This document shows positions 1 through 29,189 of a DNA stretch of 64,000 bases, piece by piece; the stretch's first letter is position 1; each line of letters opens with the position of its first letter. Source of the DNA: an uncultured Clostridia bacterium (GTDB taxonomy: Bacteria > Bacillota > Clostridia > UBA1381); contig CANRJY010000005.1 of the NCBI GenBank assembly GCA_947631085.1, positions 25,976-89,975 of the forward strand, given 5' to 3'. The position numbers and the translations under genes were made by a program. Below the pieces are notes generated by a model. That model had not been told where the DNA came from and made no database searches. It saw only the letters and a list, made by a program, of their open reading frames with translations.

Positions 1-1
1 C

Positions 2-673
2 GCGCGGGGGACACAAAATATCGCGAAGGGCGCGGCTATGACGAGAGAGGACGCAAAAAAAGCCGTTGAGACGGGTATTGAGCTTGTGCGGGAATTAAAG
101 GAAAAGGGATATAAAATCATAGTCACCGGCGAGATGGGAATAGGAAATACCACGACGAGTGCGGCTGTTTCGAGCGTGCTGCTCGGAGTGGAGCCGGAGG
201 CTGTAACGGGGCGCGGAGCGGGACTTTCCGAAAGCGGGTTGAAGCGTAAAATCGAGGTCATAAAGCGCGCGATCGAGGTAAATAAACCCGATAGAAACGA
301 CGTTATTGACGTAATTTCTAAGGTGGGCGGCTTCGATATTGCGGGACTTGCGGGAGTGTTTTTGGGCGGCGCGGTTTACCGTGTGCCTGTTGTGATTGAC
401 GGATTTATCAGCGCGGCGGCGGCTCTTTGCGCGGCGCGGCTGTGCGGAAAATGCGTCGATTTTATGATCGCGTCCCACGTTTCGGACGAGCCCGCGGCGG
501 AAATGATACTTGCCGAACTCGGGAAAAAAGCGGTGATACGCGCGGGAATGAGGCTCGGCGAGGGTACGGGCGGAGTTATGCTTCTGCCGCTTTTGGACAT
601 GGCGTTCGCGGTGTACGGCGAAATGGCGACGTTTGAGGAAACGGAAATAGAGGCGTATAAGGAGTTGAAGTGA
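2..673 (+). CDS. cobT: nicotinate-nucleotide--dimethylbenzimidazole phosphoribosyltransferase (CobT), 3' part; 5' end lies left of the window
   Basis: Frame of ORF 38..673 stays open to the window edge. GEMGIGNTT and LGEGTG motifs are typical of CobT. First gene of the cob operon. Confidence 0.85.
   Translation, partial: ARGTQNIAKGAAMTREDAKKAVETGIELVRELKEKGYKIIVTGEMGIGNTTTSAAVSSVLLGVEPEAVTGRGAGLSESGLKRKIEVIKRAIEVNKPDRNDVIDVISKVGGFDIAGLAGVFLGGAVYRVPVVIDGFISAAAALCAARLCGKCVDFMIASHVSDEPAAEMILAELGKKAVIRAGMRLGEGTGGVMLLPLLDMAFAVYGEMATFEETEIEAYKELK
7..18 (+). repeat. possible degenerate copy GGGGACACAAAA of the GGGGACACTAAA word (11/12)
   Basis: Read directly. It encodes RGTQN in a conserved CobT stretch, so it may be coincidental. 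Confidence 0.3.
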
Positions 674-1176
674 TGTTGGTTCTGGTTATCGGCGGGAGCG
701 GGAGCGGAAAGTCGGAGACGGCTGAAAATATCGCGGTCGGGTTCGGCGGAAAACGTACATATATAGCCGCGATGGAGCCGTTTTCTGATGAGGCGAAGGC
801 GAGAATCGAGCGTCACAGAGCGGCGCGGAGAGGAAAGGGCTTTGAAACCGTCGAGAGGTATACCGATGTTAAGGGGTTGAATATAAGCGGCACGGCGATT
901 TTGGAGTGCTTGTCAAATCTTTTGGCGAACGAAATGTTTTCGGCGGGCGGCGTGGGAGAAAAGGCGGTAGACGCGGTTTTGGGCGGAATTGAGCATCTTG
1001 CGCGGACGTGCGATAACCTTGTGATAGTGACAAATGAAATTTTTTCGGGGGACACTAAATATTTGGGGGACACTAAAGAGTATATGAAAAATCTTGGATA
1101 TATAAATTGCCGTATCGCGGAAAGAGCGGACGCGGTTTATGAAGTGACGTGCGGAATTGCGGAAAGGATAAAGTGA
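670..1176 (+). CDS. cobU: adenosylcobinamide kinase / adenosylcobinamide-phosphate guanylyltransferase
   Basis: P-loop GGSGSGKS, RIERHRAAR His region, C-terminal AERAD..V..G motif. GTG 670 overlaps the cobT stop (alternative ATG at 673). AAGGAG RBS at 658. Confidence 0.85.
   Translation: MMLVLVIGGSGSGKSETAENIAVGFGGKRTYIAAMEPFSDEAKARIERHRAARRGKGFETVERYTDVKGLNISGTAILECLSNLLANEMFSAGGVGEKAVDAVLGGIEHLARTCDNLVIVTNEIFSGDTKYLGDTKEYMKNLGYINCRIAERADAVYEVTCGIAERIK
1048..1059 (+). repeat. GGGGACACTAAA exact copy (sense, in cobU, read as GDTK)
   Basis: Read directly. Preceded by a fifth G. Confidence 0.95.
1066..1077 (+). repeat. GGGGACACTAAA exact copy (sense, in cobU, read as GDTK)
   Basis: Read directly. 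Lies 18 nt after the previous copy and is preceded by a fifth G. Confidence 0.95.
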
Positions 1177-1177
1177 A

Positions 1178-1945
1178 ATGAAGATATTGAAATCGTTTAT
1201 CACCGCGTTTTCGATGTATTCGAAAATCCCGATGCCGCGCGTTGAGTGGAGCGGGGACAATATGAAGTATTCGCTGTGCTTTTTTCCGCTTGTGGGAGCG
1301 GTGATCGGGGCGCTGTTTTTGCTTTGGACATGGATCTGCGTGCGGCTTGATATAGGAGGTATCTGCTTTGCGGCTGTTGCGGCGGCGCTGCCGGTTTTTG
1401 TTAGCGGCGGTATTCATTTTGACGGATTTATGGATGTGAGCGACGCGCTCGGCTCGTATGGGGACACTAAAAAGAAGCTCGAAATAATGAAGGATCCCCA
1501 TGTCGGCGCGTTCGCGGTTATCGGCGCGATCGTTTATTTCGCGCTGTATTTCGCGCTTTTTACGGAGGTTGATACGGCTGCCGAAATTGCGGCGGCAGCG
1601 TGTTCTTATCCGCTTTCGCGGACTTTGAGCGCGATAACCGTAAGCTGTTTTAAGTGCGCGAAAAAGGATGGATTATTGTTTGAGTTTTCGTCGCGGGCGC
1701 ATATCGCGGCGGTGAGGACCATGTCGGTGATTTACATCATGCTTATCGGCGCGGCGGTGATTTTTGCGTGGTCATGCGCGGCGTGGCTCGTTATCGGCGC
1801 GGCGGCGGTTGTGATGATAATTATTTATTATTTTATGACGAGGAAAAATTTCGGCGGCATTACGGGCGACACTGCGGGCTGGTTCGTGCAGGTGTGCGAG
1901 CTTGTGTTTTTGACCGTGGTCGCCGTTTTGGGGCGTTTTATATAG
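1178..1945 (+). CDS. cobS: adenosylcobinamide-GDP ribazoletransferase (cobalamin synthase)
   Basis: Polytopic membrane protein with DGFMDVSDALG and LEIMKD motifs. The ATG is 1 nt after the cobU stop. Confidence 0.85.
   Translation: MKILKSFITAFSMYSKIPMPRVEWSGDNMKYSLCFFPLVGAVIGALFLLWTWICVRLDIGGICFAAVAAALPVFVSGGIHFDGFMDVSDALGSYGDTKKKLEIMKDPHVGAFAVIGAIVYFALYFALFTEVDTAAEIAAAACSYPLSRTLSAITVSCFKCAKKDGLLFEFSSRAHIAAVRTMSVIYIMLIGAAVIFAWSCAAWLVIGAAAVVMIIIYYFMTRKNFGGITGDTAGWFVQVCELVFLTVVAVLGRFI
1460..1471 (+). repeat. GGGGACACTAAA exact copy (sense, in cobS, read as GDTK)
   Basis: Read directly. Confidence 0.95.
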
Positions 1946-1957
1946 AAAGGGAAAAAT

Positions 1958-2329
1958 ATGATTTTTATTGTGGGCGGCGCGTTTTCGGGAAAGAGAGATT
2001 ATGCGGAAAAATGCTTTGGCGCGGCGGATTTCGCATCGGGAGACGAGCCGTTTGACAGGCTCTGCAAGGCGGACGCGGTGTATGATTTTCAGCTTTTCGC
2101 GGAGAAGTGCATGGAAAATGGACTTGATGCGTTCTCGGAAACGGAGCGGCTGATAGAAAAAAATCCGAGCGTTATAATAATCGCGGACGAAATCGGCTGC
2201 GGCGTTGTTCCTGTTGAAAAATCGGACAGGGATCTGCGCGAGCTTTGCGGCAGGCTTAACTGTATGCTTGCGGAAAGGGCGGATAAGGTCGTGCGCGTCG
2301 TCTGCGGGATAGGCAGGGTGATGAAATGA
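1958..2329 (+). CDS. short CobU-like paralog (123 aa, degenerate P-loop)
   Basis: Its C-terminal half aligns residue for residue with cobU at 670..1176 (ADEIGCGVVP...AERADKVVRVVCG). Walker A reads GGAFSGKR. The His-containing middle region is missing. Confidence 0.6.
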   Translation: MIFIVGGAFSGKRDYAEKCFGAADFASGDEPFDRLCKADAVYDFQLFAEKCMENGLDAFSETERLIEKNPSVIIIADEIGCGVVPVEKSDRDLRELCGRLNCMLAERADKVVRVVCGIGRVMK

Positions 2330-2853
2330 TCGCGCTGATACGGCACGGCAGGACGGCGGGAAATTTGATGAAAAAATACATAGGAGTGACCGACGAGGAT
2401 CTGTACGACGCGCGCGGGCTTGAACGCGATTATCCCGTAGCCGATATTGTTGTGACAAGTCCGTTGAAGCGCTGCGTTCGGACGGCTGAGATTATTTATC
2501 CCGACGCGGAAAAAATTGTTATCGACGATTTGCGCGAGTACGATTTCGGGCGGTTCGAGGGGAAAACATTCGAGGAAGCCGTGAGCGACGCGGAATACAA
2601 AAAATGGCTTGAGAGCGGCGGAAACGAGCCTTTTCCAGGAGGGGAAGATCACGGGGATTTCAAGCTCCGAAGCGTCAGGGCTTTCATAGAGGCGGCTGAA
2701 AAATATAAGGATCGCGATATCGCGTTTGTCGTTCACGGCGGCACGATCATGGCTGTGATGCAGTCGCTGTTCGGCGGCGGATTTTATGATTATATGGTTG
2801 AAAACGGCGGCGGATATATTATTGAAGGAAATAGCTTCAGAGAAATAAACTGA
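2326..2853 (+). CDS. cobC: alpha-ribazole phosphatase (histidine phosphatase family)
   Basis: RHGRT motif at the N-terminus and a VVHGG motif. ATGA overlap with the upstream gene. Lies in cob operon context. Confidence 0.75.
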   Translation: MIALIRHGRTAGNLMKKYIGVTDEDLYDARGLERDYPVADIVVTSPLKRCVRTAEIIYPDAEKIVIDDLREYDFGRFEGKTFEEAVSDAEYKKWLESGGNEPFPGGEDHGDFKLRSVRAFIEAAEKYKDRDIAFVVHGGTIMAVMQSLFGGGFYDYMVENGGGYIIEGNSFREIN

Positions 2854-2856
2854 ACG

Positions 2857-2868
2857 GGGGACACTAAA
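2857..2868 (+). repeat. GGGGACACTAAA exact copy at the cobC/cbiB junction
   Basis: Read directly. Starts 4 nt after the cobC TGA. Its last A is the A of the cbiB ATG. Confidence 0.95.
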
Positions 2869-3845
2869 TGCTGAGGTATACGTTTATCGCGGTTGTATTG
2901 GGATTTATGGTCGATTTTGTGGTCGGCGATCCTCATTCGTTTCCCCACCCCGTTCGGCTTATCGGAAGGATGATAACCGTGTTCGAAAAATTGACGCGGC
3001 GCGCTTTTGGGGACACTAAAATTGGACAGCTTATAGGCGGTGCGGTTTTGTGGATCATAGTCTGCGCGCTGTCGTTTTGCGTTCCGTTCGCTGTCGTTTT
3101 TGCGGCGTACAGGCTAAATAAATGGCTGTATATCGCGGTTTCGGCAGTCATGAGCTGGCAATGCACAGCGGCGCGGCAGCTTATGCGGGAGAGTATGGCG
3201 GTGAAAAAGGCGCTTGAAACGGGCGGGATCGGCGCGGCGAGGAAAGCTGTTTCTATGATCGTCGGGCGCGATACGGACGCTCTTGACGAGGACGACATTA
3301 TACGCGCGGCGGTCGAGACGGTGGCGGAAAACGCGTCGGACGGAGTTATCGCGCCGCTTTTTTATCTGATGCTCGGCGGAGCGCCGCTCGGGTTTTTGTA
3401 TAAGGCGGTAAATACGATGGATTCGATGCTCGGCTATAAAAATGAAAGATACATATTTTTCGGTCGGTTCGCGGCGCGGGCGGACGACGTTTTTAACTTT
3501 ATTCCTTCGCGTATTTCGGCGGTATTTTTGCTTTTTGCCGCGTTTATTTTGCGGCTCGATTTCAAAAACACGCTGAAAATTTACAAAAGGGACAGGAAAA
3601 ATCATTCGAGCCCGAACGCGGCTCAGACCGAGTCCGTATGCGCGGGGGCGCTTGGGGTCAGGCTCGCGGGAGACGCGTATTATTTTGGCAAGCTATATAA
3701 AAAACCGACAATCGGGGACAGTAAAAGGGAAATAAATTCGGGGGACATAAAAACCGCGAATATTATGATGTATACCGCGGCTTTCGCGTTTTTAGCGGTG
3801 TGGGCGGCGGTTATTTCGGCTTTGGGAGGATTGGGATATGTATAA
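2868..3845 (+). CDS. cbiB: adenosylcobinamide-phosphate synthase
   Basis: Membrane protein with HPVRLIG, IVGRDT and NASDGVIAPLF motifs typical of CbiB/CobD. Confidence 0.85.
   Translation: MLRYTFIAVVLGFMVDFVVGDPHSFPHPVRLIGRMITVFEKLTRRAFGDTKIGQLIGGAVLWIIVCALSFCVPFAVVFAAYRLNKWLYIAVSAVMSWQCTAARQLMRESMAVKKALETGGIGAARKAVSMIVGRDTDALDEDDIIRAAVETVAENASDGVIAPLFYLMLGGAPLGFLYKAVNTMDSMLGYKNERYIFFGRFAARADDVFNFIPSRISAVFLLFAAFILRLDFKNTLKIYKRDRKNHSSPNAAQTESVCAGALGVRLAGDAYYFGKLYKKPTIGDSKREINSGDIKTANIMMYTAAFAFLAVWAAVISALGGLGYV
3009..3020 (+). repeat. GGGGACACTAAA exact copy (sense, in cbiB, read as GDTK)
   Basis: Read directly. Shares the 18-mer TTGGGGACACTAAAATTG with the copy at 6891. Confidence 0.95.
3714..3725 (+). 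repeat. variant copy GGGGACAGTAAA (sense, in cbiB, read as GDSK)
   Basis: Read directly. Same variant as at 4468. Confidence 0.7.
3741..3752 (+). repeat. variant copy GGGGACATAAAA (sense, in cbiB, read as GDIK)
   Basis: Read directly. Lies 27 nt after the 3714 copy. Confidence 0.5.
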
Positions 3846-4839
3846 TCACGGCGGCGATATTTACAGAAACCGCGTAAAAATCGACTTTTCGGCGAATATA
3901 AATCCGTTCGGGCTTCCCGAAACGGTCAGGATGGCGCTGTCGGAAAATATTGAGAGCTTCGGCGTTTATCCCGACCCGAAATGCGAAAGACTGCGCCGTG
4001 CCATAGCGGAGCGCGAGGGCGTTGAAATCGACAATGTTTTGTGCGGCAACGGCGCGTCGGAGCTTATTTTCAATACGGTACGCGCGGTAATGCCGAAGCG
4101 CGCGCTGTTGATCACTCCGACGTTTTCCGAATACGAGCGCGCTCTGAAAAGCGTCGGCTGCGAGATAAAATATCATACTCTTTCGGAGGAAAATAATTTT
4201 AATCTGACCGAACGGATCTTGCGGGAGCTTGACGGAGCGGACATGATTTTTCTGTGCAACCCGAACAACCCCGTCGGGAATATAATTGATGAGGCGCTGA
4301 TGGATCAAATACTTCGTGAATGTGAAAAACGGGGTATTTTCGCGGTAATCGACGAATGCTTTATGGATCTTGTTTCCGACGGGTATTCAGCGAAGGGAAG
4401 GACAGCGGTTATTAAGGCGTTTACGAAAACATACGCTCTCGCGGGGCTTCGGCTGGGATATATGATTGGGGACAGTAAAACTCTCAAGAGAATAGATTTA
4501 GTGTCCCCGTGCTGGAACGTAAGCGCGGCGGCTGAGATCGCGGGGCTCGCGGCTTTGAGTGATACGGAATATCTTGAAAAAACAAAAAAATATATCGAAA
4601 AGGAGCGCGGATTTTTGATCGACGCTCTGCGGGGGCTCGGTATAAAAACATTCAATTCGCGCGCGAATTTTATTTTGTTTAAAACCGAAAAAAATATATA
4701 CGCGCCGCTTCTTGAAAAGGGGCTGCTCGTGCGCAAATGCGGAAATTTTCGGGGGCTTGGCGGCTTGTTTTACAGAATCGCGGTGCGTTTGCATGAGGAA
4801 AATACCGTGCTTTTAAGCGCGCTGAAGGGGTGTTTGTGA
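3838..4839 (+). CDS. cobD: threonine-phosphate decarboxylase (class I/II aminotransferase fold)
   Basis: HGGD N-terminus, NPNNP motif and the [13 protein letters not shown] lysine region. Overlaps the cbiB stop by 8 nt. Confidence 0.8.
4468..4479 (+). repeat. variant copy GGGGACAGTAAA (sense, in cobD, read as GDSK)
   Basis: Read directly. Left arm of an inverted pair with 4497..4508. Confidence 0.8.
4497..4508 (-). repeat. GGGGACACTAAA exact copy in reverse complement (TTTAGTGTCCCC, in cobD, read as LVSP)
   Basis: Read directly. Right arm of the inverted pair, with a 17-nt spacer. Confidence 0.95.
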
Positions 4840-6317
4840 TGGCGAAGGCGATAATGGTTCAAGGCACTATGTCGAACGCGGGAAAAAGCGTTATCGCGGC
4901 GGCGCTGTGCCGTATTTTAAGACAGGACGGGTACAAAGCCGCGCCGTTCAAATCGCAGAATATGGCGCTCAATTCCTATATAACGGACGACGGGCTCGAA
5001 ATCGGGCGTGCGCAGGCGATGCAGGCTGAGGCGGCGGGAATAAAGCCGTCGGCGCTGATGAACCCGATTTTACTGAAGCCCACAAGCGAGCGCGGTTCGC
5101 AGGTCATAGTAAACGGCGAGGTGCGCGCGGACATGAGCGCAGCGGATTATTTCAAATACAAATCGACGCTGATACCCGAAATAAAGGCGGCGTACGAAAA
5201 GCTCGGCGCGGAATACGACGTGATCGTTATCGAGGGCGCGGGCAGTCCGGCGGAAATTAATTTGAAGGAAAACGACATAGTCAATATGGGCATGGCTGAA
5301 ATGGCGGATTGTCCCGTTCTGCTCGTGGGCGACATAGACCGAGGCGGCGTGTTCGCGCAGCTTTACGGCACGGTCGAGCTGCTTGAGCCTGACGAAAGGG
5401 CGCGCGTCAAGGGGCTTATTATAAATAAATTCCGAGGCGATGTTGAAATTTTAAAGCCGGGGCTGATTATGCTTGAGGATCTGACGAATATTGATGTGAT
5501 CGGCGTTGTGCCGTACGCTGATTTGCGGCTCGACGACGAGGACAGCCTGTCGGAGCGGCTCGGCGTGAAAAACGCGGGGGCGGTCGATATAGCTGTGATA
5601 CGCCTTCCGCGCATATCGAATTTTACCGATTTTAACGCGTTCGAGCCTGTTGAGGGAGTGTCGGTCAGGTATGTGAAATCAGCGTTGGAGCTTGGCGAAC
5701 CCGACATGATAATCATTCCCGGAACGAAAAATACGATCGCGGATCTGCTTTGGATGCGCGGGAACGGGCTTGAAGCGGCGGTTGTGAAGCGCGCGCGCAA
5801 GGAGACGGTAATTTTCGGCGTTTGCGGCGGTTATCAGATGCTCGGGGAAACCATAATTGACGAAAACGGCGCGGAATACGGTGGCAGAGTTCGCGGGATG
5901 GGCTTGCTTCCGAGCGATACCGTGTTTGAAACGGAGAAAAAAAGAACGCGGGTAACGGGGAAATTCGAAAACGTATCGGGGACACTAAAACCTCTTTCGG
6001 GCAAAACGTTTTCGGGATATGAAATACATATGGGTCGGACAAACTTTAGTGTCCCCGCGATGTGCGCCTTTTCGGACGGCGGCACGGACGGAGTATGCTC
6101 GGGAAATGTTTACGGCACTTATGTTCACGGGATTTTCGACGAATGCGCCGCCGATATCGTGCGGTGTCTCGCGGAGAAAAAGGGCTTGAACACGGACGAT
6201 ATACGCGATATTGATATGAGGGAATTTAAGGAAAAGGAATACGACAGGCTCGCGGATATTGTGCGCGCGAGCATTGACATGGAAAAAATATACGAAATTA
6301 TCGGATTGGGGGATTAA
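4839..6317 (+). CDS. cobQ: cobyric acid synthase
   Basis: MVQGT.SNAGKS N-terminus. GATase domain with [17 protein letters not shown] and YVHGIFD. ATG 4839 overlaps the cobD TGA (the ORF track starts at GTG 4830). Confidence 0.9.
5978..5989 (+). repeat. GGGGACACTAAA exact copy (sense, in cobQ, read as GTLK)
   Basis: Read directly. Left arm of a perfect inverted pair. Confidence 0.95.
6045..6056 (-). repeat. GGGGACACTAAA exact copy in reverse complement (TTTAGTGTCCCC, in cobQ, read as FSVP)
   Basis: Read directly. Right arm of the perfect inverted pair, with a 55-nt spacer. Confidence 0.95.
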
Positions 6318-6318
6318 A

Positions 6319-6825
6319 ATGCTTCATATTTACTGCGGCGGCGGCAAGGGAAAAACGACAGCCGCTATGGGGCTTGTCGCGCGTATGGCGGGAAACGGCG
6401 GGCGCGTGCTTATCGTGCAGTTTTTAAAAGGCTCTCCGAGCGGCGAGATCACGTTTTTTGAGGAAGCGAAAAATATAAAAATTCTCCGCTGTGACAAAAA
6501 TTACGGCTTCACGTTTCAAATGAGCGAAAACGACAAAGCCGAGATCACGCGCTGTCATAATCGGAATTTGGAATACGCGCTCGATAACGCGGGCGTGTAC
6601 GATTTAATAATTCTCGACGAAATTTTCGCGGCTTTAAACGGCGGGCTCGTTGACGAGGGGACACTAAAAGAACTGATTGGTAATGCGAAGGATACGGAAA
6701 TTGTCATGACGGGCAGAGATCCCCATAAATACTATACGGATATAGCCGATTACATATCGGAAATCAGGAAAATAAAGCACCCGTTTGACGGCGGAGTGAG
6801 CGCGAGAAGGGGGATAGAGTTTTGA
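6319..6825 (+). CDS. cobO: cob(I)yrinic acid a,c-diamide adenosyltransferase (CobA/CobO/BtuR type)
   Basis: GGGKGKTTAA P-loop, LDE and TGR motifs. I chose the internal ATG 6319, 2 nt after the cobQ stop, over the track start at 6259. Confidence 0.85.
   Translation: MLHIYCGGGKGKTTAAMGLVARMAGNGGRVLIVQFLKGSPSGEITFFEEAKNIKILRCDKNYGFTFQMSENDKAEITRCHNRNLEYALDNAGVYDLIILDEIFAALNGGLVDEGTLKELIGNAKDTEIVMTGRDPHKYYTDIADYISEIRKIKHPFDGGVSARRGIEF
6657..6668 (+). repeat. GGGGACACTAAA exact copy (sense, in cobO, read as GTLK)
   Basis: Read directly. Confidence 0.95.
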
Positions 6826-7445
6826 AAATCGAACGGCTTTTACCCAACGAAATCGAAGCGCGCAGTATGGAAATTATCGAAGCGGAGCTTGGGGACACTA
6901 AAATTGATCCCGAGCAAAAACCGATAATCAAGCGCGTGATACATACCACGGCGGATTTTGATTATCTTGAAAATCTCGTTTTTTCGGAAAATGTCATACA
7001 AATCATAAAGGACGCGCTCCGAAACGGGGCGGATATAATCACAGACACGCAGATGGCAAAATCGGGCATAAACAAGCGTATTTTAGCCGATTTGGGCGGC
7101 GAGGTACACTGCTTTATGTCCGACGCGGACGTGGCTGAGACGGCGGGGAAAAACGGCACGACACGCGCGGAGGCGAGCATGGACAAGGCGGCAAGGCTCG
7201 GAGACGGAAATGTTTTCGCGATAGGCAACGCTCCGACCGCGCTCATACGGCTGTATGAACTGATTACGGCGGACGTGTTTAAACCGGCGGCGGTAATAGG
7301 CGTGCCGGTGGGATTTGTGAACGTGGTGCAGGCGAAGGAGCTTATAATGACGGCGGGCGTTCCGTATATAGCCGCGCGCGGGCGAAAGGGCGGAAGCAAC
7401 GTCGCGGCGGCGATATGCAACGCGGTTCTATATGATATCAGATAA
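6822..7445 (+). CDS. cbiC: cobalt-precorrin-8 methylmutase
   Basis: RVIHTTADFDY, GNAPTAL and VGFV motifs. TTG start overlaps the cobO TGA (alternative ATG at 6867). Confidence 0.85.
   Translation: MKIERLLPNEIEARSMEIIEAELGDTKIDPEQKPIIKRVIHTTADFDYLENLVFSENVIQIIKDALRNGADIITDTQMAKSGINKRILADLGGEVHCFMSDADVAETAGKNGTTRAEASMDKAARLGDGNVFAIGNAPTALIRLYELITADVFKPAAVIGVPVGFVNVVQAKELIMTAGVPYIAARGRKGGSNVAAAICNAVLYDIR
6891..6902 (+). repeat. GGGGACACTAAA exact copy (sense, in cbiC, read as GDTK)
   Basis: Read directly. Confidence 0.95.
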
Positions 7446-7533
7446 GACTTTTGTGCAAAAATATGCGGTTTGGTATTGACTGTACATATGTAAAAATGGT
7501 AAAATAAACTGAAATAAAAGCAGGAGAAAACAT

Positions 7534-8397
7534 ATGTGGATTGCGGATAACTGGAAGGATTACAGGCTGATCGACAGCGCGTCGGGCGAGAAGCTCGAAT
7601 ACTGGGGCAAATACCTTTTGCGCCGTCCCGACCCGCAGGCGGTCTGGAGCGTGAAATCGGAAAAAACGCTCTGGAATAAGACCGACGCGCGGTACCACCG
7701 TTCAAGCTCCGGCGGCGGCAAGTGGGAATTTTTCAAAAAACTCCCCGAACGCTGGACGATCGGCTACGGGGATTTGACGTTTAACATAAAACCGATGGGC
7801 TTCAAGCACACCGGTCTTTTTCCCGAGCAGGCGGTCAACTGGGACTGGTTCTCGGGACTGATAAAGGACGCAAAAAAGCCGGTGCGGGTCCTGAATTTGT
7901 TCGCGTATACCGGCGGCGCGACTGTCGCGGCTCTCTCGGCGGGCGCGGAGGTGGTTCATGTTGACGCGGCGAAGGGCATGGTGACGTGGGCGAAGGAAAA
8001 CGTGGTTTCGTCGGGATTGGGCGAGAGACCTGTGCGGTATATCGTTGACGACGTTGTAAAATTCGTAAAGCGCGAGCAGAGGCGCGGGCGGCGGTATGAC
8101 GCGGTAATCATGGATCCTCCCTCGTACGGGCGCGGACCATCGGGCGAGCTTTGGAAGATAGAAAACGAGCTGTATCCGCTGATGGAGGACTGCATGAAAA
8201 TCATGTCGGACGAGCCGCTGTTTTTCCTGATAAACTCGTACACTACGGGGCTGAGCGCGCAGGTGCTTGTAAACGTGCTGTCGATGACGATGAAGGCGAG
8301 ATACGGCGGAAAGGTTACGGCGGACGAAATAGGTTTGCCGATGTCCTCAAACGGATTGGTTCTTCCATGCGGAATAAGCGGCAGGTGGGAAAGATGA
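7534..8397 (+). CDS. class I SAM-dependent methyltransferase (RlmI/YwbD-like)
   Basis: [17 protein letters not shown]-binding motif and a DPPSYG motif. AGGAG RBS upstream. Confidence 0.7.
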
Positions 8398-9209
8398 TAA
8401 AAACCGAAAATGTTTCTTTTTCGTATTCGGACGGGGAGCAAGTTCTTAAAAATATAAATTTGGCGATTGAAAAAGGCTCGTTTGCGGCGATAATCGGGTG
8501 CAATGGGAGCGGGAAATCGACGGCTGCGAAGCATTTTAATGCGCTGCTTCTTCCGAAAAGCGGCGCGGTTTATGTGAAGGGAATCGATACGCGCGACGAA
8601 AAGCGGCTGTTTGAGATACGCTCGGCGGCGGGAATGGTGTTTCAAAATCCCGATAATCAGATGGTTGCGGCGATCGTTGAGGACGAGGTCGCGTTTGCGC
8701 CTGAAAATCTCGGCTTGGAGCGAAATGAAATACGCAGACGCGTTGATGAAAGTCTGCGCGCGGTCGGTATGGAGGAATACGCGCTTAAATCGAGCGCGCA
8801 TCTGTCGGGAGGGCAGAAGCAGCGCGTAGCCGTAGCGGCGGCGCTCGCGATGGAGCCGGAATGCCTTATACTCGACGAATCTACTGCGATGCTCGATCCC
8901 CGCGGGCGTGCGGAGCTGATGAAAACAATAAAAAAGCTGAACCGCGGAAATAATCTGACGGTCATTCTGATCACTCACTATATGGACGAAGCCGCGCAAG
9001 CCGACCGCGTGATAGTCATGGACGGCGGCGAGATCGTTATGGACGGAACGCCGCGCGCGGTGTTTTCGGACGTTGAAAAAATCCGCTCGCTCGGGCTTGA
9101 CGTGCCGCAGGCGGCGGAAATCGCGTATGAGCTGGGCTTGAACGGGGCGCTTACCGTTGACGAGTGCGTAAACGCGATCGACGGGCTTCTCGGAGGTGCG
9201 CGGCGATGA
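8394..9209 (+). CDS. ecfA1: energy-coupling factor transporter ATPase
   Basis: Walker [20 protein letters not shown] and LDEST motifs. Internal ATG 8394 (ATGA overlap with the upstream stop) chosen over track start 8151. Confidence 0.85.
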
Positions 9210-10054
9210 TAAAAATTGAAAATCTTAACTATGCGTATAAAACCGGCGCGAAAAATCAAAATCAAGCGCTGGTTGACATAAATCTTGAAATAGCGGATAA
9301 CAGCCTGACCGCGCTGATAGGTCACACGGGAAGCGGGAAATCGACGCTTATTCGTCACTTGAACGGGCTTATAAAGCCTGATTCGGGAAAAATTTTTATA
9401 GACGGTACGGAAATTACCGATCCGAAAACGGATCTGCGCAGGGTGCGCTTTGACGTGGGGCTGGTGTTCCAGTATCCCGAGCAGCAGCTTTTCGCGGAAA
9501 CGGTGTATAAGGACATAGCGTTCGGACCGGAAAATATGAAGCTCGGCGCGGACGAGGTGAGGCGGCGCGTGTACGAGGCGGCGGAGATGGTCGGGCTTTC
9601 GGAAAAGTCGCTTGAAAAATCGCCGTTCGAGCTGTCGGGCGGACAGAAGCGGCGCGCGGCGATCGCGGGAGTGCTGGCTATGAAGCCGAAAAATCTTATC
9701 ATGGACGAACCCGCGGCGGGGCTTGATCCGCGCGGCAGGGACGGGATATTCGCGCTTATAAAGCGGCTGCACAAGTCGGGCATGACGATACTTTTCACAT
9801 CCCATTCTATGGAGGACGCGGCGAAAACGGCGGAGCGCGTGATAGTCATGGACAAAGGCAAAATTTTTGCCGAGGGCTCCGTCGGGGAGATATTCGCGCG
9901 CGGGGGAGAGCTCAGAAAAATCGGACTTGACACGCCGCAGGTTACGCGGATCGCCGATAAGCTGAGAGATATGGGCTACGATATACCGCCCGTATACACG
10001 ACGGCTCAAATGACGGACGCGGTAAAAAAAATAATCGGAGGAACAAATGGTTGA
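9206..10054 (+). CDS. ecfA2: energy-coupling factor transporter ATPase
   Basis: Walker [20 protein letters not shown] and MDEPAAGLD motifs. ATG 9206 overlaps the ecfA1 TGA. Confidence 0.85.
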
Positions 10055-10841
10055 TATATTGATCGGGCAGTATCTCGCGGGCAGCTCCGCGCTGCACAGA
10101 ACGGACGCGCGCGTTAAGATAATACTGCTGATATTATATGCCGCGCTGCTGTTTATGATAAAAAAACCGCTTTCCTACGCGATTTTTGCGGCGTTTACCG
10201 CGGCGCTTACAATGACGGGCGGGATAGGATTTAAAACCGTTATGAAATCAATAAAGCCGCTTAGGTGGATCATAATTTTCACGGCGGCGGTAAATCTGTT
10301 TTTCACAAAGGGCGAGGCGTTTTTTTCGGTTTGGAAAATAGCGATAGCGGCGGAGGGGATAGATTTGGCGGTCAAAATGACCGTGCGGTTATTGTGCTTG
10401 ATAACAGCGTCGTCGCTTCTGACGCTGACAACGCCGCCAATGCGGCTTACTGACGCGGTGGAATCGCTTTTAAGCCCTCTTGCGAGACTGAAGGTGCCGG
10501 TGAGGGAGCTGGCTATGATGATGAGCATAACGCTCAGGTTTATTCCCGTTCTCGCGGAGGAGGCGGACAGGATAATAAAAGCGCAGACGGCGCGCGGAGC
10601 GGATTTCGGCTCGGGCGGCATAATACGCCGAGCGAAATCGCTTGTGCCGGTGATGCTGCCGCTTTTCATAAGCGCGTTTAAGCGAGCGGAGGATTTGGCG
10701 GCGGCTATGGACGCGCGGTGTTTCATAAGCGGCGCGGCGCGGACGAAGCTCTGCGAAAACAGGCTGACACCGTTGGACGCGCGAGCGGGGGCGGTTTTTG
10801 TTGTTTTCGCGGCGGCGGTCATGGCGGCGGAATTGTGGTAA
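10047..10841 (+). CDS. ecfT: energy-coupling factor transporter transmembrane component
   Basis: Polytopic protein with the ARGA..G coupling-helix motif. Follows ecfA1/ecfA2. Confidence 0.85.
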   Translation: MVDILIGQYLAGSSALHRTDARVKIILLILYAALLFMIKKPLSYAIFAAFTAALTMTGGIGFKTVMKSIKPLRWIIIFTAAVNLFFTKGEAFFSVWKIAIAAEGIDLAVKMTVRLLCLITASSLLTLTTPPMRLTDAVESLLSPLARLKVPVRELAMMMSITLRFIPVLAEEADRIIKAQTARGADFGSGGIIRRAKSLVPVMLPLFISAFKRAEDLAAAMDARCFISGAARTKLCENRLTPLDARAGAVFVVFAAAVMAAELW

Positions 10842-10898: not shown

Positions 10899-11630
10899 AT
10901 GAATATTAGGCTATCGCTTCAATATGACGGCACGGCTTATCATGGGTGGCAGGTGCAGGAAAATGCCGTTACCGTGCAGGAAATAGTGAAAAACGCGCTC
11001 TCGGAGCTGACGGGGGAGAAAATTAATCTTATCGGCTGCGGACGTACCGACGCGGGCGTTCACGCGCTCGATTATACCTGCAATTTTCACACCGAAACGA
11101 CTATTCCGGTTGAAAAGCTGCCGTACGCGTTAAATTCGCGGCTGCCGGAGGATATAGTCTGCTTCGCGGCGGATGTGGTTCCCGATGATTTTCACGCGAA
11201 AAACAGCGCGGTGAGGAAGCGGTATGTTTATAAAATATTAAACGCTCCGTTCCCCGACGCGTTTATGAAAAATTACGCGTGGCATTTTAAATATCCTCTC
11301 GATACTGCAAAAATGCAAAGGGCGGCGGAGGCGTTTTTGGGCGAGCATGATTTTATCGGCTTCGCGTCGAGCGGATTTACGGTAAAAACTACGGTGAGAA
11401 CAATATATTCGCTCGACGTTTCAAAGGAAAACAATATTATAACGATAGATATAACCGGAAACGGATTTCTGTATAATATGGTGCGTATAATCGCGGGTAC
11501 TCTCGCGTTCGCGGGCTGCGGAAAGCTCGATCCGGACGATACGGCGCGCATAATCGCGTCGAAGGACCGCGCGGAAGCGGGCATTACCGCGCCGCCGCAG
11601 GGACTTTTCCTAAAGGAGGTGTACTATTGA
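10899..11630 (+). CDS. truA: tRNA pseudouridine(38-40) synthase
   Basis: YDGT.YHGWQ, GCGRTDAGVHA and FLYNMVR motifs. ATG 10899 chosen over TTG 10872. Confidence 0.9.
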   Translation: MNIRLSLQYDGTAYHGWQVQENAVTVQEIVKNALSELTGEKINLIGCGRTDAGVHALDYTCNFHTETTIPVEKLPYALNSRLPEDIVCFAADVVPDDFHAKNSAVRKRYVYKILNAPFPDAFMKNYAWHFKYPLDTAKMQRAAEAFLGEHDFIGFASSGFTVKTTVRTIYSLDVSKENNIITIDITGNGFLYNMVRIIAGTLAFAGCGKLDPDDTARIIASKDRAEAGITAPPQGLFLKEVYY

Positions 11631-13201
11631 TGGACGATGAAAAAATCGAAAAATCCATTGATGATATAATTCAATACGGCGATGAATCCGAGGATGATTT
11701 TGATATAGAACCGGAAGAACCTAAAGAGCAAACCGACAATGCGGAAGCCTCCGAAGAAGAAGCCGAAGAGCCTGCGGCGGAACCCGATGAACAAACAGAG
11801 GAAGGCGAAGGAGCCGAAGAGCCCGCAGAGGAATCGGAACCCGAGGAAAAGACTTCGGAAGAAGGCGGCGAATACGAGTTCTATGACGACGGAGACGAAT
11901 ACATCGATTACGAATACGATGAATTGGACGAGGACTTTGAGGATGACGAGGAAGAATACAGAATAAGCACAAAAGCGCTGACGATCATAGCTGTCATAAT
12001 GGCGGTTATCGTGCTTTTCGGCGCGCTTTCGTTCGTCAACATAGGCTTTGTGGGAGAATACAAGAAAAATTTTGCGAGAAACATATCGGTATTGGCGGAT
12101 AAAATGGGAATAAGCTTAGGAGGCGGAGAATTGCAGGCGGAGCCGGAAGCCGCGCAGCCGAAGGAGGCGGGCGCGGTAACGGTTACGGAAAACGGCGAGG
12201 CTGCTACGGCGGAGGGGTATGACACCGAGATCGCGAGCAGCCAGATAATACCTGTGGAAAACGCGGTTTCAGCGCAGTTTGCGAAATATAAAAACGGCGT
12301 TGTGTGCGCGTCTCCGAATAAAATGATGTTTATAGACGGCACCGGAACCGCCGCATGGGAATGCGATACCGTTGTTGTAAATCCCGTGCTGAAAACCGGC
12401 GGCGATTACATACTTCTCACGGAAAAGAACGGCACGCGGATGTGTCTTTATAACGGAAATGAAAATATCTATGACATAAACGCCGACGATAAGCTGATAA
12501 ACTGCTGCGTATCATCAAACGGCGACGTCGCGGCTGTTACGGACAAAGCGGGATATAAAGGCGCGGTTACGGTGTTTAACAAGAGCGGCGCGCAGATTTT
12601 CTCGTGGGCTTCCGGCAGCGACAACGTAATATGCGCCGATATTTCCGCAAAATCACGCCGCGTCGCGGCGGCGCTTTTAAACACCGACGGTCAGGCAAAA
12701 TCAAGCATTAAAATTTTCGATATAAAAGAAACAGAGGCTCTTATGACGACGACATTCGAGGATTCCATTATTTTCGATGTGCGTTTTGCGGGAGATACGC
12801 TGAATGCGTTCGGCGACAACAGCATGATAGGTATGACATCAAGCGGGCGCTTGCTTTACGATATGCGTTTTACCGGCAGCGATTTTGTACACTATTCGAC
12901 GGACGGCGACGGTAATTATGTTCTTCTGCTCGAAAACGCAAATATACCCGTAATCAATCTTTACAACAAAAAGGGAAAGCTGAAGGAGCAGTTTTCCACC
13001 GACGCCCTGCCGGACGTAATCGATATTTACGGAAACAACATCGTATACAACAGCGGCAGAACCATTGTTTCCGGCCGCGCGGACGGTAAAAATATGACGC
13101 GGTTTAACGCGGATATGGATGTGAGAAAGCTGTTTTTGACAGATGAAAAGACGTTTATTATAGTCTATTCCGGAAGCGTGGAAACTGTAACTATGAAATA
13201 A
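11627..13201 (+). CDS. hypothetical single-pass membrane protein with an acidic N-terminal tail and a repeat-rich extracytoplasmic domain
   Basis: About 110 aa of D/E-rich sequence, one TM helix (ALTIIAVIMAVIVLFGALSFV), then about 390 aa predicted beta-rich. ATGA overlap with truA. Confidence 0.7.
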   Translation: MMDDEKIEKSIDDIIQYGDESEDDFDIEPEEPKEQTDNAEASEEEAEEPAAEPDEQTEEGEGAEEPAEESEPEEKTSEEGGEYEFYDDGDEYIDYEYDELDEDFEDDEEEYRISTKALTIIAVIMAVIVLFGALSFVNIGFVGEYKKNFARNISVLADKMGISLGGGELQAEPEAAQPKEAGAVTVTENGEAATAEGYDTEIASSQIIPVENAVSAQFAKYKNGVVCASPNKMMFIDGTGTAAWECDTVVVNPVLKTGGDYILLTEKNGTRMCLYNGNENIYDINADDKLINCCVSSNGDVAAVTDKAGYKGAVTVFNKSGAQIFSWASGSDNVICADISAKSRRVAAALLNTDGQAKSSIKIFDIKETEALMTTTFEDSIIFDVRFAGDTLNAFGDNSMIGMTSSGRLLYDMRFTGSDFVHYSTDGDGNYVLLLENANIPVINLYNKKGKLKEQFSTDALPDVIDIYGNNIVYNSGRTIVSGRADGKNMTRFNADMDVRKLFLTDEKTFIIVYSGSVETVTMK

Positions 13202-15676: not shown

Positions 15677-16435
15677 TTATATCTCGCCGACAAGATCGGT
15701 CATACTGTACATTCCCGCGGGTTTTCCCGCCATAAACTTCGCGGCTCTTACCGCGCCCACCGCGAATACCTCTTTCGAAGCCGCGTGGTGGCTGAGCGTT
15801 ATGACCTCGTCGTTGCCCGCGAAAATAACGTCGTGCTCGCCCACGATCGTGCCGCCGCGTATAGCGTGCAGTCCGATCTCGGTATTCTTGCGCTTGCGCC
15901 TTACCGAATGGCGGTCATAAACGTACTCGGCGGGATATGACAGCGTTTCGTCAATAGCGTCCGCGATAGCCAAAGCCGTGCCTGATGGCGCGTCTATTTT
16001 CTGATTATGGTGCTTTTCAACGATTTCTATATCGAAATTGCCCTCCAAAAGCTTCGCCGCCGTTTTCGCGAGCGCGATCAAAAGATTTATTCCCAGGCTC
16101 ATATTCGCCGAGAAGAAAATCGGAACGCTCTCCGCCGCTTCCTTCATCTGCGCCTTCTGCTCGTCTGTGTAGCCGGTCGTCGCGAGTATAACGGGTAAGC
16201 GGCGCGTTTTGCAATATTCGAGTATCGCGTCGAGCGCGGACGGATGCGAAAAATCGATCATAACGTCCGCCGCTCCGGTGTATTCCGACGGCGTTTTATA
16301 GACAGGATACGGATTTTCAACAGCGTCGTTTATATCAACGCCCGCGACGATCTCGCAGTCCGCGTCCTCGCTCACGAGGCGGTCTATAACTCTGCCCATC
16401 TTGCCGTTACAGCCGTTTAAAATTATCTTTGTCAT
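15677..16435 (-). CDS. dapB: 4-hydroxy-tetrahydrodipicolinate reductase
   Basis: GCNGKMG NAD motif and EKHHNQKIDAPSGTA motif. ATG 16435 has a GGGAG RBS (track start 16459). Confidence 0.9.
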   Translation of the reverse strand: MTKIILNGCNGKMGRVIDRLVSEDADCEIVAGVDINDAVENPYPVYKTPSEYTGAADVMIDFSHPSALDAILEYCKTRRLPVILATTGYTDEQKAQMKEAAESVPIFFSANMSLGINLLIALAKTAAKLLEGNFDIEIVEKHHNQKIDAPSGTALAIADAIDETLSYPAEYVYDRHSVRRKRKNTEIGLHAIRGGTIVGEHDVIFAGNDEVITLSHHAASKEVFAVGAVRAAKFMAGKPAGMYSMTDLVGEI

Positions 16436-16455
16436 TGGTTTTTCTCCCTTTCCAA

Positions 16456-17346
16456 TCAATACAGCTTCTTAACTCCCATTTTTTCAAGCGATTTTTTAAG
16501 CGTTTCGAGGTTCTTTTCCTCCATGTCAACGAGCGGCATTCTGAGCTTGCCCGCGCTGTAGCCGAGAACGTTCATCGCCGTCTTTATCGGCACGGGATTT
16601 ACCTCGATAAAGAGATTATTTATAAGCTCCAGCATATCAAGCTGTAATTTGCAAGCCTTTACCGCGTCACCGTTTAAGAAATATTCGCATATATTATGCG
16701 TTTCCTCGGGCATAATATTCGCCACGACCGAAATAACGCCCTTGCCGCCGAGCGACATAACAGGCACGATCATATCGTCGTTTCCAGAGTATATGTACAG
16801 ATCCGGCACTTCCGCGGCAACCTTCGCCGTATAGCTGATATTGCCGCTCGCCTCCTTGACCGCGACGATATTTTGTACCTTTGAAAGCTGTTTTAACGTG
16901 TCGATTGCAAACGTCATGCCCGTACGCGACGGAACATTATAGAGTATGACCGGAATTTTAACCGCGTTCGCGATAGCCGTAAAGTGCGCGACAAGTCCCT
17001 TCTGCGTAGTCTTGTTGTAGTACGGCGTAACGGAAAGAATACCGTCCGCGCCCATTTCCTCGGCTTTTTTCGTAAGCTCGATCGCGTGAGCCGTATCGTT
17101 CGAGCCTGTACCAGCGATCACGGGAATACGTCCGTTTGCCTTTTTTATCGTATATTCGATAGTCGCCAAATGCTCCGCGTCCGGCATAGTCGAAGCCTCG
17201 CCGGTAGTACCGCAGATAATGATCGCGTCTGTCTTATTCGCGATATGCATTTCAATCAATCTGCCCAGCTCGTCAAAATTAACGCCGTCCTCCGTAAACG
17301 GAGTAACGATCGCAACGCCCGAGCCTGTGAAAGGTAATGTTTTCAT
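16456..17346 (-). CDS. dapA: 4-hydroxy-tetrahydrodipicolinate synthase
   Basis: GTTGE, YNVPSRT and KEASG (active-site Lys) motifs. ATG 17346 has a GGAGG RBS. Confidence 0.9.
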
Positions 17347-17360
17347 TGTATAACCTCCTA

Positions 17361-18464
17361 TCAATCCATATATCCTTTTGCCGTCAACAATTCCGCCAAC
17401 AATACCGCGCCGCCTGCCGCGCCTCTCAGCGTGTTATGGCTCATCGAAACCATTTTGTAATCGTACTGTGTCGACTCTCTGAGCCTGCCGCAGCTTATCG
17501 CCATGCCGCCGTCGATCTCGCGCGCCGTCTTAATCTGCGGCTGATCGGGATTTTCGGCTTCGGTGTAAACGTGGATAAACTGCTTCGGCGCGTGCGGCAA
17601 ATTTAATTCCTGCGGTACGCCCTTAAATTCGCGCCACATATTCTCGATCTCCTCAACCGACGGCTTATTCACGCCGTCCTTGAACGAGAAGAATATCGCC
17701 GCCGTATGACCGTCCGAAACGGGTACGCGGTACGTTTGGCACTCGATCTGCAGCTCCGTTGACGGAACTATCTCGCCGCCCTCGATTTTGCCCAAAATCT
17801 TATTCGGCTCAACCTCCGACTTCATCTCCTCGCCGCCTATATACGGAATGAGGTTGTCGACCATTTCCTGCCACGTTTCAAACGTCTTGCCCGCGCCGGA
17901 AATCGCCTGATACGTCGTAACAAGCGCGTGGTCTATTGGGTATTTTTGATTTATGACCGCCATAGCGGGCAGGTACGACTGAAGCGAGCAATTCGACTTG
18001 ACCGCCACAAAACCGCGCTTCGTGCCGAGCCGCTTTCTCTGCGCCGGAATGATCTCGATATGCTGCGGATTTATCTCCGGTATGATCATCGGCACGTCGG
18101 GAGTATGTCTGTGCGCCGAGTTGTTTGAAACAACGGGACACTCCGCCTTAGCGTAACGCTCCTCCAAAGCCTTTATCTCGTCCTTTTTCATATCGACCGC
18201 GCAGAACACAAAGTCAACCATCGACGCGATTTTCTCAACGTCGCCCGCCGCGTCCATAACCACCATATCGGCAACGCTCGCGGGAATTTCCTCCTTCATC
18301 GCCCACTTCGCGCCGACCGCGTCCTTATACGCCTTGCCCGCGCTTCTCGGCGACGCGGCAAGCACCGTTATCGTGTACCACGGGTGATCGTGCAGAAGCG
18401 TTATGAAACGCTGTCCCACCATTCCCGTAGCGCCTATTATTCCTACCTTGTAATTTTCTTTCAT
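17361..18464 (-). CDS. asd: aspartate-semialdehyde dehydrogenase
   Basis: [12 protein letters not shown] and QAISGAG motifs. ATG 18464 has an AAAGGAG RBS. Confidence 0.9.
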
Positions 18465-18489
18465 ATATAAAACTCCTTTCATGCGTGTT

Positions 18490-18700: not shown

Positions 18701-18708
18701 TTTATAAT

Positions 18709-29187: not shown

Positions 29188-29189
29188 GT

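Follow-up and report, generated by a model that had tools for sequence, protein, structure and literature searches.

The element described here, a 12-nt word repeated along a vitamin B12 (cbi/cob) operon of an uncultured Clostridia bacterium, has its closest described counterparts in uptake sequences and in the ops element read by RfaH. The DNA uptake sequence (DUS) of Neisseriaceae, the 12-mer ATGCCGTCTGAA, and the uptake signal sequence (USS) of Pasteurellaceae are present in ~1,000 or more copies per genome, or ~0.7–1 per kb (PMC1852404, PMC2346458). Their inverted pairs serve as terminator hairpins, in one preferred configuration (PMC1852404); copies inside genes are oriented at a ratio of ~2:1, as in N. 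meningitidis with 245:123 (PMC2346458), and a bias toward genome-maintenance genes is cited in PMC2346458. The ops element is read on the non-template strand, and hardly any of its bases is dispensable; the operons that it serves are long, hard to express and xenogeneic, and it promotes the recruitment of ribosomes (PMC7593976). The word that we compare with these, GGGGACACTAAA, lies in the first 7 kb of a 64,000-nt stretch of DNA, referred to below as the window (GenBank assembly GCA_947631085.1, contig CANRJY010000005.1, positions 25,976 to 89,975 of the forward strand). It is kept by selection within one narrow clade and has the B12 operon as its main target, and we tentatively read it as a sense-strand element recognized by a clade-specific factor.

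Other short elements resemble the word in part. HIP1 (GCGATCGC) of cyanobacteria, a palindrome without strand polarity, is found up to once per few hundred nt throughout the genome and is not concentrated in operons; like it, the Clostridia word is a short exact sequence over-represented in and outside genes and kept at orthologous sites, but it is strand-polar, sparse and operon-concentrated. With REP/BIME/REPIN elements it shares a short palindromic unit and intergenic hairpins and arrays, frequently at the 3′ ends of genes; REPs, however, are essentially intergenic insertions moved by RAYT transposases, whereas about a third of the copies of the word lie length-neutrally deep in genes and single 12-nt arms predominate. 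Close sense repeats, some overlapping a Shine-Dalgarno sequence, recall the targets of TRAP (GAG repeats) and CsrA (GGA at the Shine-Dalgarno position, sponge RNAs), and arrays of the word in untranslated RNA could likewise act as sponges; yet the TRAP and CsrA motifs are degenerate and 3–5 nt long, and none is a strict 12-mer scattered through coding sequence.

Results

A 12-nt word recurs in one operon of the window

When both strands of the window are scanned with mismatches allowed, GGGGACACTAAA is found exactly at ten positions, eight on the plus strand (1048, 1066, 1460, 2857, 3009, 5978, 6657 and 6891) and two on the minus strand (4497 and 6045), with near copies at 7 (GGGGACACAAAA), 3714 and 4468 (both GGGGACAGTAAA) and 3741 (two mismatches). 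No 11- or 12-mer recurs more often in the window, and 100 dinucleotide-preserving shuffles of the window yielded no match to the word. Beyond 6902 and up to 64000, neither strand holds a copy of the family at two mismatches or fewer, apart from a match at 34484, the sole further one in the window, which is at chance level. A first-pass annotation made by eye had reported the same positions and the same empty remainder, and its other counts were recovered from the open reading frames (ORFs): all 14 copies lie inside the 3′ part of the cbi/cob operon (7–6902), where eight of the ten cistrons bear one; 12 of the 14 are in sense orientation; and the exact sense copies inside genes read GDTK or GTLK, the antisense ones LVSP and FSVP.

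Because the bases flanking the copies differ, the unit is exactly 12 nt long and has sharp edges; a fifth G on its 5′ side or a fourth A on its 3′ side, already noticed for most copies, accompanies eight of the ten exact ones. The codons that make up the word are rare (GGG, 8% of Gly; ACT, 9% of Thr, as its description as uncommon had implied; CTA, 1% of Leu). Alignments with orthologs agree with the earlier view that the in-gene copies are substitutions without change of length, some of them over conserved residues (FPKT to FGDTK in CbiB), which rules out the insertion of a mobile element as their source. A peptide-level motif is likewise ruled out by the use of two reading frames, untranslated positions and rare codons, so that the signal is, as had been proposed, one of nucleotides. 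An assembly artifact is ruled out, since three independent assemblies bear the copies. An ENA contig (L001, 99.8% identical) and a contig assembled by Logan from a different sample (L002, 96.1%) both have all the copies within their span at identical positions.

Searches matched the word to no described signal. An Rfam scan matched nothing in the cob blocks and only a lysine riboswitch in the window; a long pairing with the 3′ tail of 16S rRNA was rejected, since by hand only GGGG pairs (with the general anti-Shine-Dalgarno sequence); and GGGGACACTAAA was not found in the literature searched, in keeping with the annotator's statement that no known element carries it.

The word is maintained by selection

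Relative to L002, the operon region shows 294 differences in 7.4 kb and none in the 156 nt occupied by words (6.4 expected; permutation P=0.005). Comparison with L052, a locus of the sister genome Lapin-020__bin117 (89.9% identity), gives the same picture over the eight exact copies that the two share: none of their 96 nt has changed (9.7 changes expected; permutation P=5e-4), while the 60 nt around single copies differ at up to 14 positions. Among genomes of a second cob lineage (B; the window's own is A), a retention test restricted to copies that had not themselves selected the block found 74% of coding and 94% of non-coding copies to be exact, versus 42.5% of control 12-mers. The word is thus real and maintained by selection, and the zero changes, the rare codons and the overwritten conserved residues together imply that the nucleotide sequence itself is what is kept.

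The word is confined to one narrow clade

A search for two copies within 30 nt, run on one genome per species of a 596-Gbp collection, returned at least 118 stretches, with ~0.1 expected by chance in the whole collection. Among the matches listed, nearly all stretches come from ~15 uncultured Clostridia metagenome-assembled genomes (MAGs), which include ten rabbit-gut 'Lapin' bins, a goat MAG, Ca. Ornithomonoglobus, Hominilimicola and MAGs labeled as Oscillospiraceae or Lachnospiraceae; NCBI taxonomy places the named genera within Clostridia, in or near Oscillospiraceae. These listed matches (889 kb) contain 436 exact, 106 one-off and 45 two-off copies, a ratio of exact to one-off copies of 4:1. 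A codon model predicts 0.05 copies per genome, and the word is ~1000 times more frequent than chance or more.

In the same blocks together with the metagenome locus L123, 111 one-off copies were counted, chiefly AGGGACACTAAA (63), GGGGACAGTAAA (13) and GGGGACACAAAA (10). Their positions 4, 11 and 12 are invariant and position 1 is the loosest. Written more exactly, the word is RGGGACA[C/G][T/A]AAA. Since GGGGACAGTAAA and GGGGACACAAAA are common variants in the clade, three of the four near copies of the window belong to the family.

Outside the clade the word disappears. Of 80 metagenome cob loci collected by CobQ homology (1.12 Mb, 59–69% identity), 79 are without it, and the sole bearer, L123, is the closest of the 80 and has it, among other places, at the same two CobQ sites as the window; orthologous operons at ~61% CbiB identity have no copy. 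Two further pair-scan matches, from unrelated phyla, were set aside as having nothing in common with this system, the 12-mer lying within a local tandem repeat in a Tepidisphaeraceae MAG (L106, 430–499) and within a coiled-coil-like protein repeat in a Doudnabacteria MAG (L119, 396–449). No word is present in 2.9 million viral contigs, a result that is uninformative if the phages of this clade are unsampled. The word is accordingly confined to one narrow clade, and the window's lineage belongs to it, though its cob operon looks foreign there, because an unrelated locus of the sister genome (L115) carries the word in the canonical terminator arrangement described below.

Copies follow the sense strand of genes

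Deep inside genes, 127 of the 436 copies (about a third) are in sense orientation and two are antisense. After collapsing orthologues, 69 sense sites stand against three antisense ones, one of which is misclassified while the other two are the window's own. Codon usage predicts a sense excess of 2:1, relative to which 69:3 gives P=1.7e-9, and a GDTK:GTLK ratio of 16:1, where 78:49 is observed; near-matches in word-free genes favor the sense strand only 2–3-fold. Copies close to genes and without an inverted partner run along the flanking genes in ~103 cases and against them in 5. As the majority orientation switches between neighboring blocks (adjacent, 8 kb) of one contig, it follows the genes and not the replication arm, and in a replichore check the in-gene copies were sense whichever strand their gene occupies. 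The sense excess first remarked in the window is therefore real, and is far stronger across the clade.

The cbi/cob operon is a hot-spot

With the selecting pairs removed, cbi/cob homologues carry 0.90 copies/kb and other DNA 0.12 (7.3-fold, P=3e-19). More than 1 kb away from selecting pairs the density is 0.024–0.027 copies/kb; non-cob DNA of five lineage-B species holds 12 copies in 447 kb, and 21.9 kb of lineage-B genome picked blind to the word (via mnmG) holds none. Long contigs have at least one pair-bearing cluster per 88 kb, and adding these back gives ~0.07 copies/kb overall. Set against this genomic background of ~0.03–0.07 copies/kb, the 0.9–1.9 copies/kb of cbi/cob operons amount to an enrichment of at least 13-fold (relative to ~0.07) and up to ~35-fold (relative to 0.027). 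So sparse a background also makes the window's 57 word-free kb unremarkable (P ~0.2–0.3). The first-pass annotation had implied a system private to the operon: within the window no other locus carries the word, but the same 12-mer stands at many unrelated loci in ~15 related MAGs, and what remains of that view is a density in the operon quite unlike that of the genome at large.

In addition to lineage A, the enrichment recurs in other cob lineages, four to five in all, whose proteins are 45–74% identical and whose copies are nearly all sense. Some sites are common across lineages (CobQ SGTLKP, CbiC LGDTK and the second CobU site) and many others are lineage-specific; from cobT to cobD, for instance, lineage B has none and lineage A ten. 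What is conserved is density, and not position.

The lineage-B operon, which bears ~20 copies but none in its leader or first gene, starts at cbiD behind a sigma-A-like TTGATT-17-TATAAT and a ~45-nt 5′ untranslated region (UTR) in which Rfam detects no riboswitch; the first copy follows 1.2 kb on. In the window, the last copy lies in the last gene of the operon, and the next unit is preceded by a promoter-like TTGACT-18-TAAAAT at 7476–7505, so that the word-rich zone coincides with one transcription unit. As to the cobalamin riboswitch of lineage-B genomes, it is situated 5′ of a FecCD/Btu-type transporter gene and none is present at cbiD (observations at L038 4822–4913, L016 2824–3022 and L097 1650–1849, which also define the cbiD start).

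A mark of the B12 regulon as a whole is ruled out by a second B12-related cluster of the window (28–39.8 kb), which has no copy. This B12/tetrapyrrole cluster (28231–39791) consists of hemB, a cobA-hemD fusion, hemC and hemA on the minus strand, prolyl-tRNA synthetase (33255–34709, minus strand), and then cbiM, an ABC ATPase, hemL and a CobC-like phosphatase on the plus strand. At the Rfam gathering threshold the cluster shows no cobalamin riboswitch, which is unusual for cbiM.

Arrays, terminators and start codons elsewhere in the clade

Away from the cob operons the word adopts several recurrent arrangements. Tandem direct arrays consist of 2–4 copies separated by 2–5 or ~21–24 nt and frequently lie just past a stop codon; some arrays inside genes, as at L017, resemble tandem duplications of a 24-nt unit. 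At the commonest gap, 4 nt (arrays of L007, L009, L016 and others), the GGGACA of one copy and the TAAAnn of the next are 17 nt apart and so have the geometry of a sigma-A promoter, a numerical coincidence.

A second arrangement is the palindrome GGGGACACTAAA-NN-TTTAGTGTCCCC, with As on its 5′ side and Ts on its 3′ side. The word precedes its complement in 73 pairs and follows it in 2; the 2-nt gap and a T-rich tail are seen in 42 of the 73. The palindrome folds with −24.9 kcal/mol (z=−7.5), is found mainly between convergent genes and constitutes a bidirectional intrinsic terminator.

In a third, an ATG begins within 0–2 nt of the 3′ end of the word, whose GGGG then occupies the Shine-Dalgarno position. 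This applies to 51 of the 436 copies (12%), and the arrangement is also present in distant members of the clade.

Genes that host the word usually bear 2–6 copies in a cluster. The encoded proteins are unrelated and have the copies in loops or linkers: altronate dehydratase, the MutL linker, M20, U32 and M14 peptidases, a rhamnosidase, GH2, DUF5107, UxaC and YggS, as well as two ORFs that by eye resemble HypD and HypE and are putative. In general no complement lies near these in-gene sense copies, which would therefore be read as single strands.

Cobalamin riboswitches, OLE RNA, a tetrahydrofolate (THF) riboswitch and tRNAs are detected by Rfam in the relatives, and none adjoins a word array. 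The OLE RNAs are full-length (RF01071, >410 bits) and belong to rabbit-gut Clostridia MAGs (L059 4556–5221 and L056 681–1346, both on the minus strand); the THF riboswitch is at L056 7373–7485 (plus strand).

Copies along the window operon

The 3′ part of the cbi/cob operon occupies positions 1..7445 of the plus strand, its ORFs being labeled through Pfam matches of the gene calls on L001 and L002. cobT, truncated by the window edge, extends to 673 and holds the near copy GGGGACACAAAA at 7–18 (GTQN); L052 is exact at the same site and has an additional exact copy 15 nt upstream of it, outside the window edge. The first cobU-like gene (670–1176) contains a doublet (1048–1059 and 1066–1077, 6-nt gap) that reads SGDTKYLGDTKEY, the corresponding segment of lineage B being SDGITYGAATEKY; the doublet is unchanged in L001, L002 and L052, and its second copy is common to lineage C (L104). 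In cobS (1178–1945) the exact copy at 1460–1471 reads YGDTKKK, where orthologues have YGTKEK or YGDKHK. There follow a second, short cobU-like gene (1958–2329; 123 aa, PF02283, P-loop kept), which is also part of the lineage-B and lineage-C cob operons, and cobC (2326–2853).

The cbiB start codon shares its A with the end of an exact copy (2857–2868) in the spacer between cobC and cbiB (GGGGACACTAAATG), and the GGGG of this copy falls at the Shine-Dalgarno position, 7 nt 5′ of the ATG; lineage D likewise has the word immediately 5′ of the cbiB ATG. Within cbiB (2868–3845), the exact copy at 3009–3020 reads FGDTKIG in place of FPKT. Of five orthologues from outside lineage A, four retain the FPKT motif and the fifth (L051) has FSKN; relative to L052 this copy has no change and its 60 nt of flanks have 10. 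Two near copies follow at 3714–3725 (GGGGACAGTAAA, GDSK) and 3741–3752 (GGGGACATAAAA, GDIK).

The two antisense copies lie 29 and 67 nt downstream of a sense copy, with which they would pair into in-gene hairpins. That of cobD (3838–4839) spans 4468–4508 and joins the sense near copy at 4468–4479 (GGGGACAGTAAA), through a 17-nt loop, to the antisense exact copy at 4497–4508 (LVSP); its predicted fold (−17.5 kcal/mol, z=−3.0) is conserved in L001, L002 and L052. That of cobQ (4839–6317) spans 5978–6056, with a sense exact copy at 5978–5989 (SGTLKP), 55 nt, and an antisense exact copy at 6045–6056 (NFSVP), and is predicted to have a 13-bp stem (−32.4 kcal/mol, z=−3.75). The sense site is common to lineages B, C and L123; the antisense copy, a one-off copy in L123, belongs to a variable loop that carries two sense copies in lineage B. 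The operon ends with cobO (6319–6825), which has an exact copy at 6657–6668 (EGTLKE, the frame with the rare CTA codon), and cbiC (6822–7445), whose copy at 6891–6902 (LGDTKID) is the last of the operon and occupies the same site in lineage C (L104).

History and surroundings of the operon

The coding-strand GC skew of the window operon is 0.234, versus 0.103±0.018 for random sets of other genes (0 of 3000 reach it), and its relative synonymous codon usage (RSCU) is an outlier (P=0.0013), with ordinary GC and GC3. The sister genome shows the same contrast (0.213 vs 0.077), which is missing from lineage B (~0.10 vs 0.087). The operon is compositionally foreign in lineage A. The four genes 3′ of it (to 10838), a SAM methyltransferase gene (7534–8397) and then three putative ECF transporter genes, still have a skew of 0.18–0.20, versus ~0.10 farther on, and the compositionally atypical segment (1–10838) may be longer than the word-bearing operon.

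Five lineage-B species are 89–94% identical. Their cob genes (92.6–92.8%) are as diverged as the rest of the genome (91.4–93.7%), and the operon is thus vertically inherited in this lineage; recent exchange of cob between these species was looked for and not seen. Between lineages A and D, cob proteins are 60–74% identical and neighboring housekeeping genes 80–83%. A ComEC-type gene (PF03772 and Lactamase_B) lies 1.7 kb from mnmG in relatives (L204 13561–15861, L205 11645–13945, L206 7790–10090), and these three loci contain no copy of the word.

The lysine riboswitch of the window (RF00168, 111.8 bits, 18534–18704, minus strand), its sole Rfam match, is upstream of an asd-dapA-dapB operon on the same strand (17364–18563, 16459–17433 and 15680–16468). 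A DUF5711-family protein encoded at 11627–13198 (plus strand) has an extremely acidic, low-complexity N-terminal region of ~110 residues.

Discussion

We tentatively favor, at rather less than even confidence, the reading of the word as a sense-strand element that is recognized, on the transcript or on the non-template DNA strand, by a clade-specific factor. Its polarity, clustering, tandem arrays, use at ribosome-binding sites and sparse, target-like spread suggest this reading, which fits them best, and so do the coincidence of the word-rich zone with one riboswitch-less transcription unit and the conservation of density over position; the tandem arrays with 2–5-nt gaps suggest cooperative, multi-site binding. 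A clade-private, sequence-specific factor would recognize the word either on RNA, whether nascent or mature, or on the non-template DNA within the elongation complex, much as RfaH reads ops, and many occupied sites along the cbi-cob transcript would set the share of it that is completed, kept or translated. Elsewhere the word has been co-opted as a Shine-Dalgarno-plus-spacer cassette directly 5′ of ATG and, when paired with its own complement, as the stem of a bidirectional terminator. The idea of a multi-site target on the polycistronic mRNA, put forward in the first-pass annotation, thus survives as the best-fitting one, with a set of targets wider than a single operon.

A more specific proposal, which we consider possible and advance with reserve, is that the word constitutes a new kind of B12-operon control that would replace the 5′ cobalamin riboswitch: a ~17-kb unit with 14–25 words, read via RNA, non-template DNA or an RNA guide, the word being used in addition genome-wide as a ribosome-binding site and as a terminator arm.

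The system most like such an element is ops/RfaH, which has in common with it a length of 12 nt, sense polarity, exactness and presence in several genera, although the strand actually read is in our case one that we infer; both are associated with long, often foreign operons and with ribosome recruitment at genes with weak Shine-Dalgarno sequences. The two sequences are unrelated, and ops lies in leaders in one or two copies and without terminator stems or 3′-UTR arrays, whereas the window operon has 14 words within its genes.

A number of observations weigh against a sense-strand element. Among the annotated genes of the window no candidate reader (protein, small RNA or NusG paralogue) was found. 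The word follows no single positional logic, occurring in 5′ UTRs, ORFs and 3′ UTRs, and at least one upstream ORF even takes its stop codon from it; such scattered placement is what a DNA-level requirement for mere presence would give. Both antisense copies of the window are kept in L002 and L052. If tolerance alone gave a 10:1 bias, the ratio of 69:3 would not be significant (P=0.06), and the strand bias could also be amplified by selection against pairing between sense and antisense RNA. An antitermination-type element would not be expected as the arm of a terminator, and ops sites number one or two per leader, not 14–25 per operon. A palindromic terminator as the one preferred configuration is, for its part, a hallmark of uptake sequences (PMC1852404). 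Finally, the host genes (cob, mutL, glycosidases, sugar-acid catabolism) have no common regulatory theme and resemble loci known for loss and re-acquisition.

The main rival is a DUS/USS-like uptake word, which we regard as somewhat unlikely. Competence-biased uptake and recombination would spread the word wherever it is tolerated or useful, and repeatedly lost and re-acquired loci, such as a 'selfish' cob operon and mutL, would gather most copies; the window operon would have come, or would stay, by transfer. Loss and re-acquisition were reportedly described by Lawrence and Roth in 1996 for cob and, it is said, by Denamur in 2000 for mismatch-repair genes. Like DUS and USS, the word is an exact sequence in the 9–12-nt range, common to several related genera and far above chance. 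Its exact copies outnumber one-off ones, and its inverted pairs, with their A and T tails and strongly preferred order, make terminators, as those of USS and DUS do (PMC1852404). It is placed wherever tolerance allows, substitution in weakly conserved stretches accounts for its in-gene copies, and its hosts include cob, accessory catabolism and a DNA-repair gene, mutL, whose linker copies parallel the bias of uptake sequences for genome-maintenance genes. In lineage A the operon is foreign in composition, which is the part that holds of the earlier suggestion of an uptake word brought in by an acquired operon; this, the absence of the word from the viral contigs and the presence of a ComEC gene in relatives also fit the explanation.

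Against it stand, in the first place, numbers: the word, at ~0.03–0.07/kb, is at least ~10-fold rarer than known uptake sequences, very patchy (gaps of 22–57 kb) and biased to the sense strand by ~35:1 instead of ~2:1. The clustering of 2–6 copies within a few hundred nt would add little to uptake, and tandem direct arrays are, to our knowledge, not described for DUS or USS; the Shine-Dalgarno cassette and the hot-spot in a single operon set the word apart as well. The lineage-B cob genes give no sign of recent exchange, and those of lineages A and D are more diverged than the housekeeping genes next to them. The host is Gram-positive, we know of no sequence-specific DNA uptake in any Firmicute, and the literature searched holds no report of uptake sequences in Clostridia; a prepilin motif gave 0 matches in the clade sequence scanned.

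An orientation-dependent, DNA-bound roadblock, formed by a double-stranded-DNA-binding protein or an RNA-guided binder, is improbable. Natural guides with 11–15 nt of complementarity repress without cutting, and the complement strand of the word, TTTA followed by GTGTCCCC, has the form of a Cas12a-type protospacer-adjacent motif (PAM) plus an 8-nt seed, a likeness that may be coincidence. The sharp 12-nt edges and the invariance of positions 4, 11 and 12 in one-off copies would suit such a binder, while the looseness of position 1, the far end of the putative seed, is compatible with it and proves nothing. Polarity that tracks the direction of transcription and inverted pairs between convergent genes would also be expected of a roadblock, and with many sites in one operon the repression would be polar and steep; but the sequences examined showed neither cas genes nor CRISPR arrays nor a candidate binder, and the palindrome, flanked by A and U tracts, has the textbook form of an intrinsic terminator, for which no protein is needed.

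Even less probable is a selfish or neutral repeat, either a REP/REPIN-like hairpin that a transposase spreads or a by-product of slippage and gene conversion near a favored terminator sequence, whose in-gene copies would have no function. Palindromic hairpin units and arrays in intergenic DNA, and in-gene arrays like that of L017, are what it would leave; the length-neutral in-gene copies, in contrast, are not insertions, a third of all copies are deep in coding sequence, and copies stay exact while their flanks diverge, at the cost of conserved residues and rare codons. A RAYT/IS200-type gene was not encountered, though no systematic search was made. That AddAB or FtsK/SpoIIIE would read the word as a polar one of Chi or KOPS/SRS type, its orientation set by the replication arm, is very hard to credit: the word is G-rich, strand-polar, sparse (about one site per 15–50 kb) and missing from viral contigs, but its orientation changes with gene direction between adjacent blocks, inverted pairs are common, words of that type are 5–8 nt long, and nothing in this reading accounts for a hot-spot in a single operon. 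For an array of recombinase sites, also raised in the first-pass annotation, no support was found.

In summary, the word falls outside the described classes DUS/USS, ops, REP and Chi/KOPS. Every plausible outcome lies near an existing category, and a categorically new kind of element is conceivable. The finding is genuine and family-wide, and more interesting than a quirk private to one operon. Exact in-gene words that are kept against conserved residues and preferred codons are rare, and earlier ones led to uptake receptors, RecBCD, FtsK and RfaH. This one is conserved in several genera of gut Clostridia that are abundant and uncultured. It labels a definite group of transcripts and has its focus on the pathway of B12, a public good traded in gut communities. 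If it is a sense-strand element read by a transcript-associated factor, it would represent a new, riboswitch-independent layer of B12 control and offer a 12-nt handle for finding that factor; an uptake word, on the other hand, would be the first Gram-positive (Firmicute) case, on the very operon that inspired selfish-operon theory, and would provide direct sequence evidence for that idea. Under either reading, the word is a cheap and specific marker of this clade in metagenomes.

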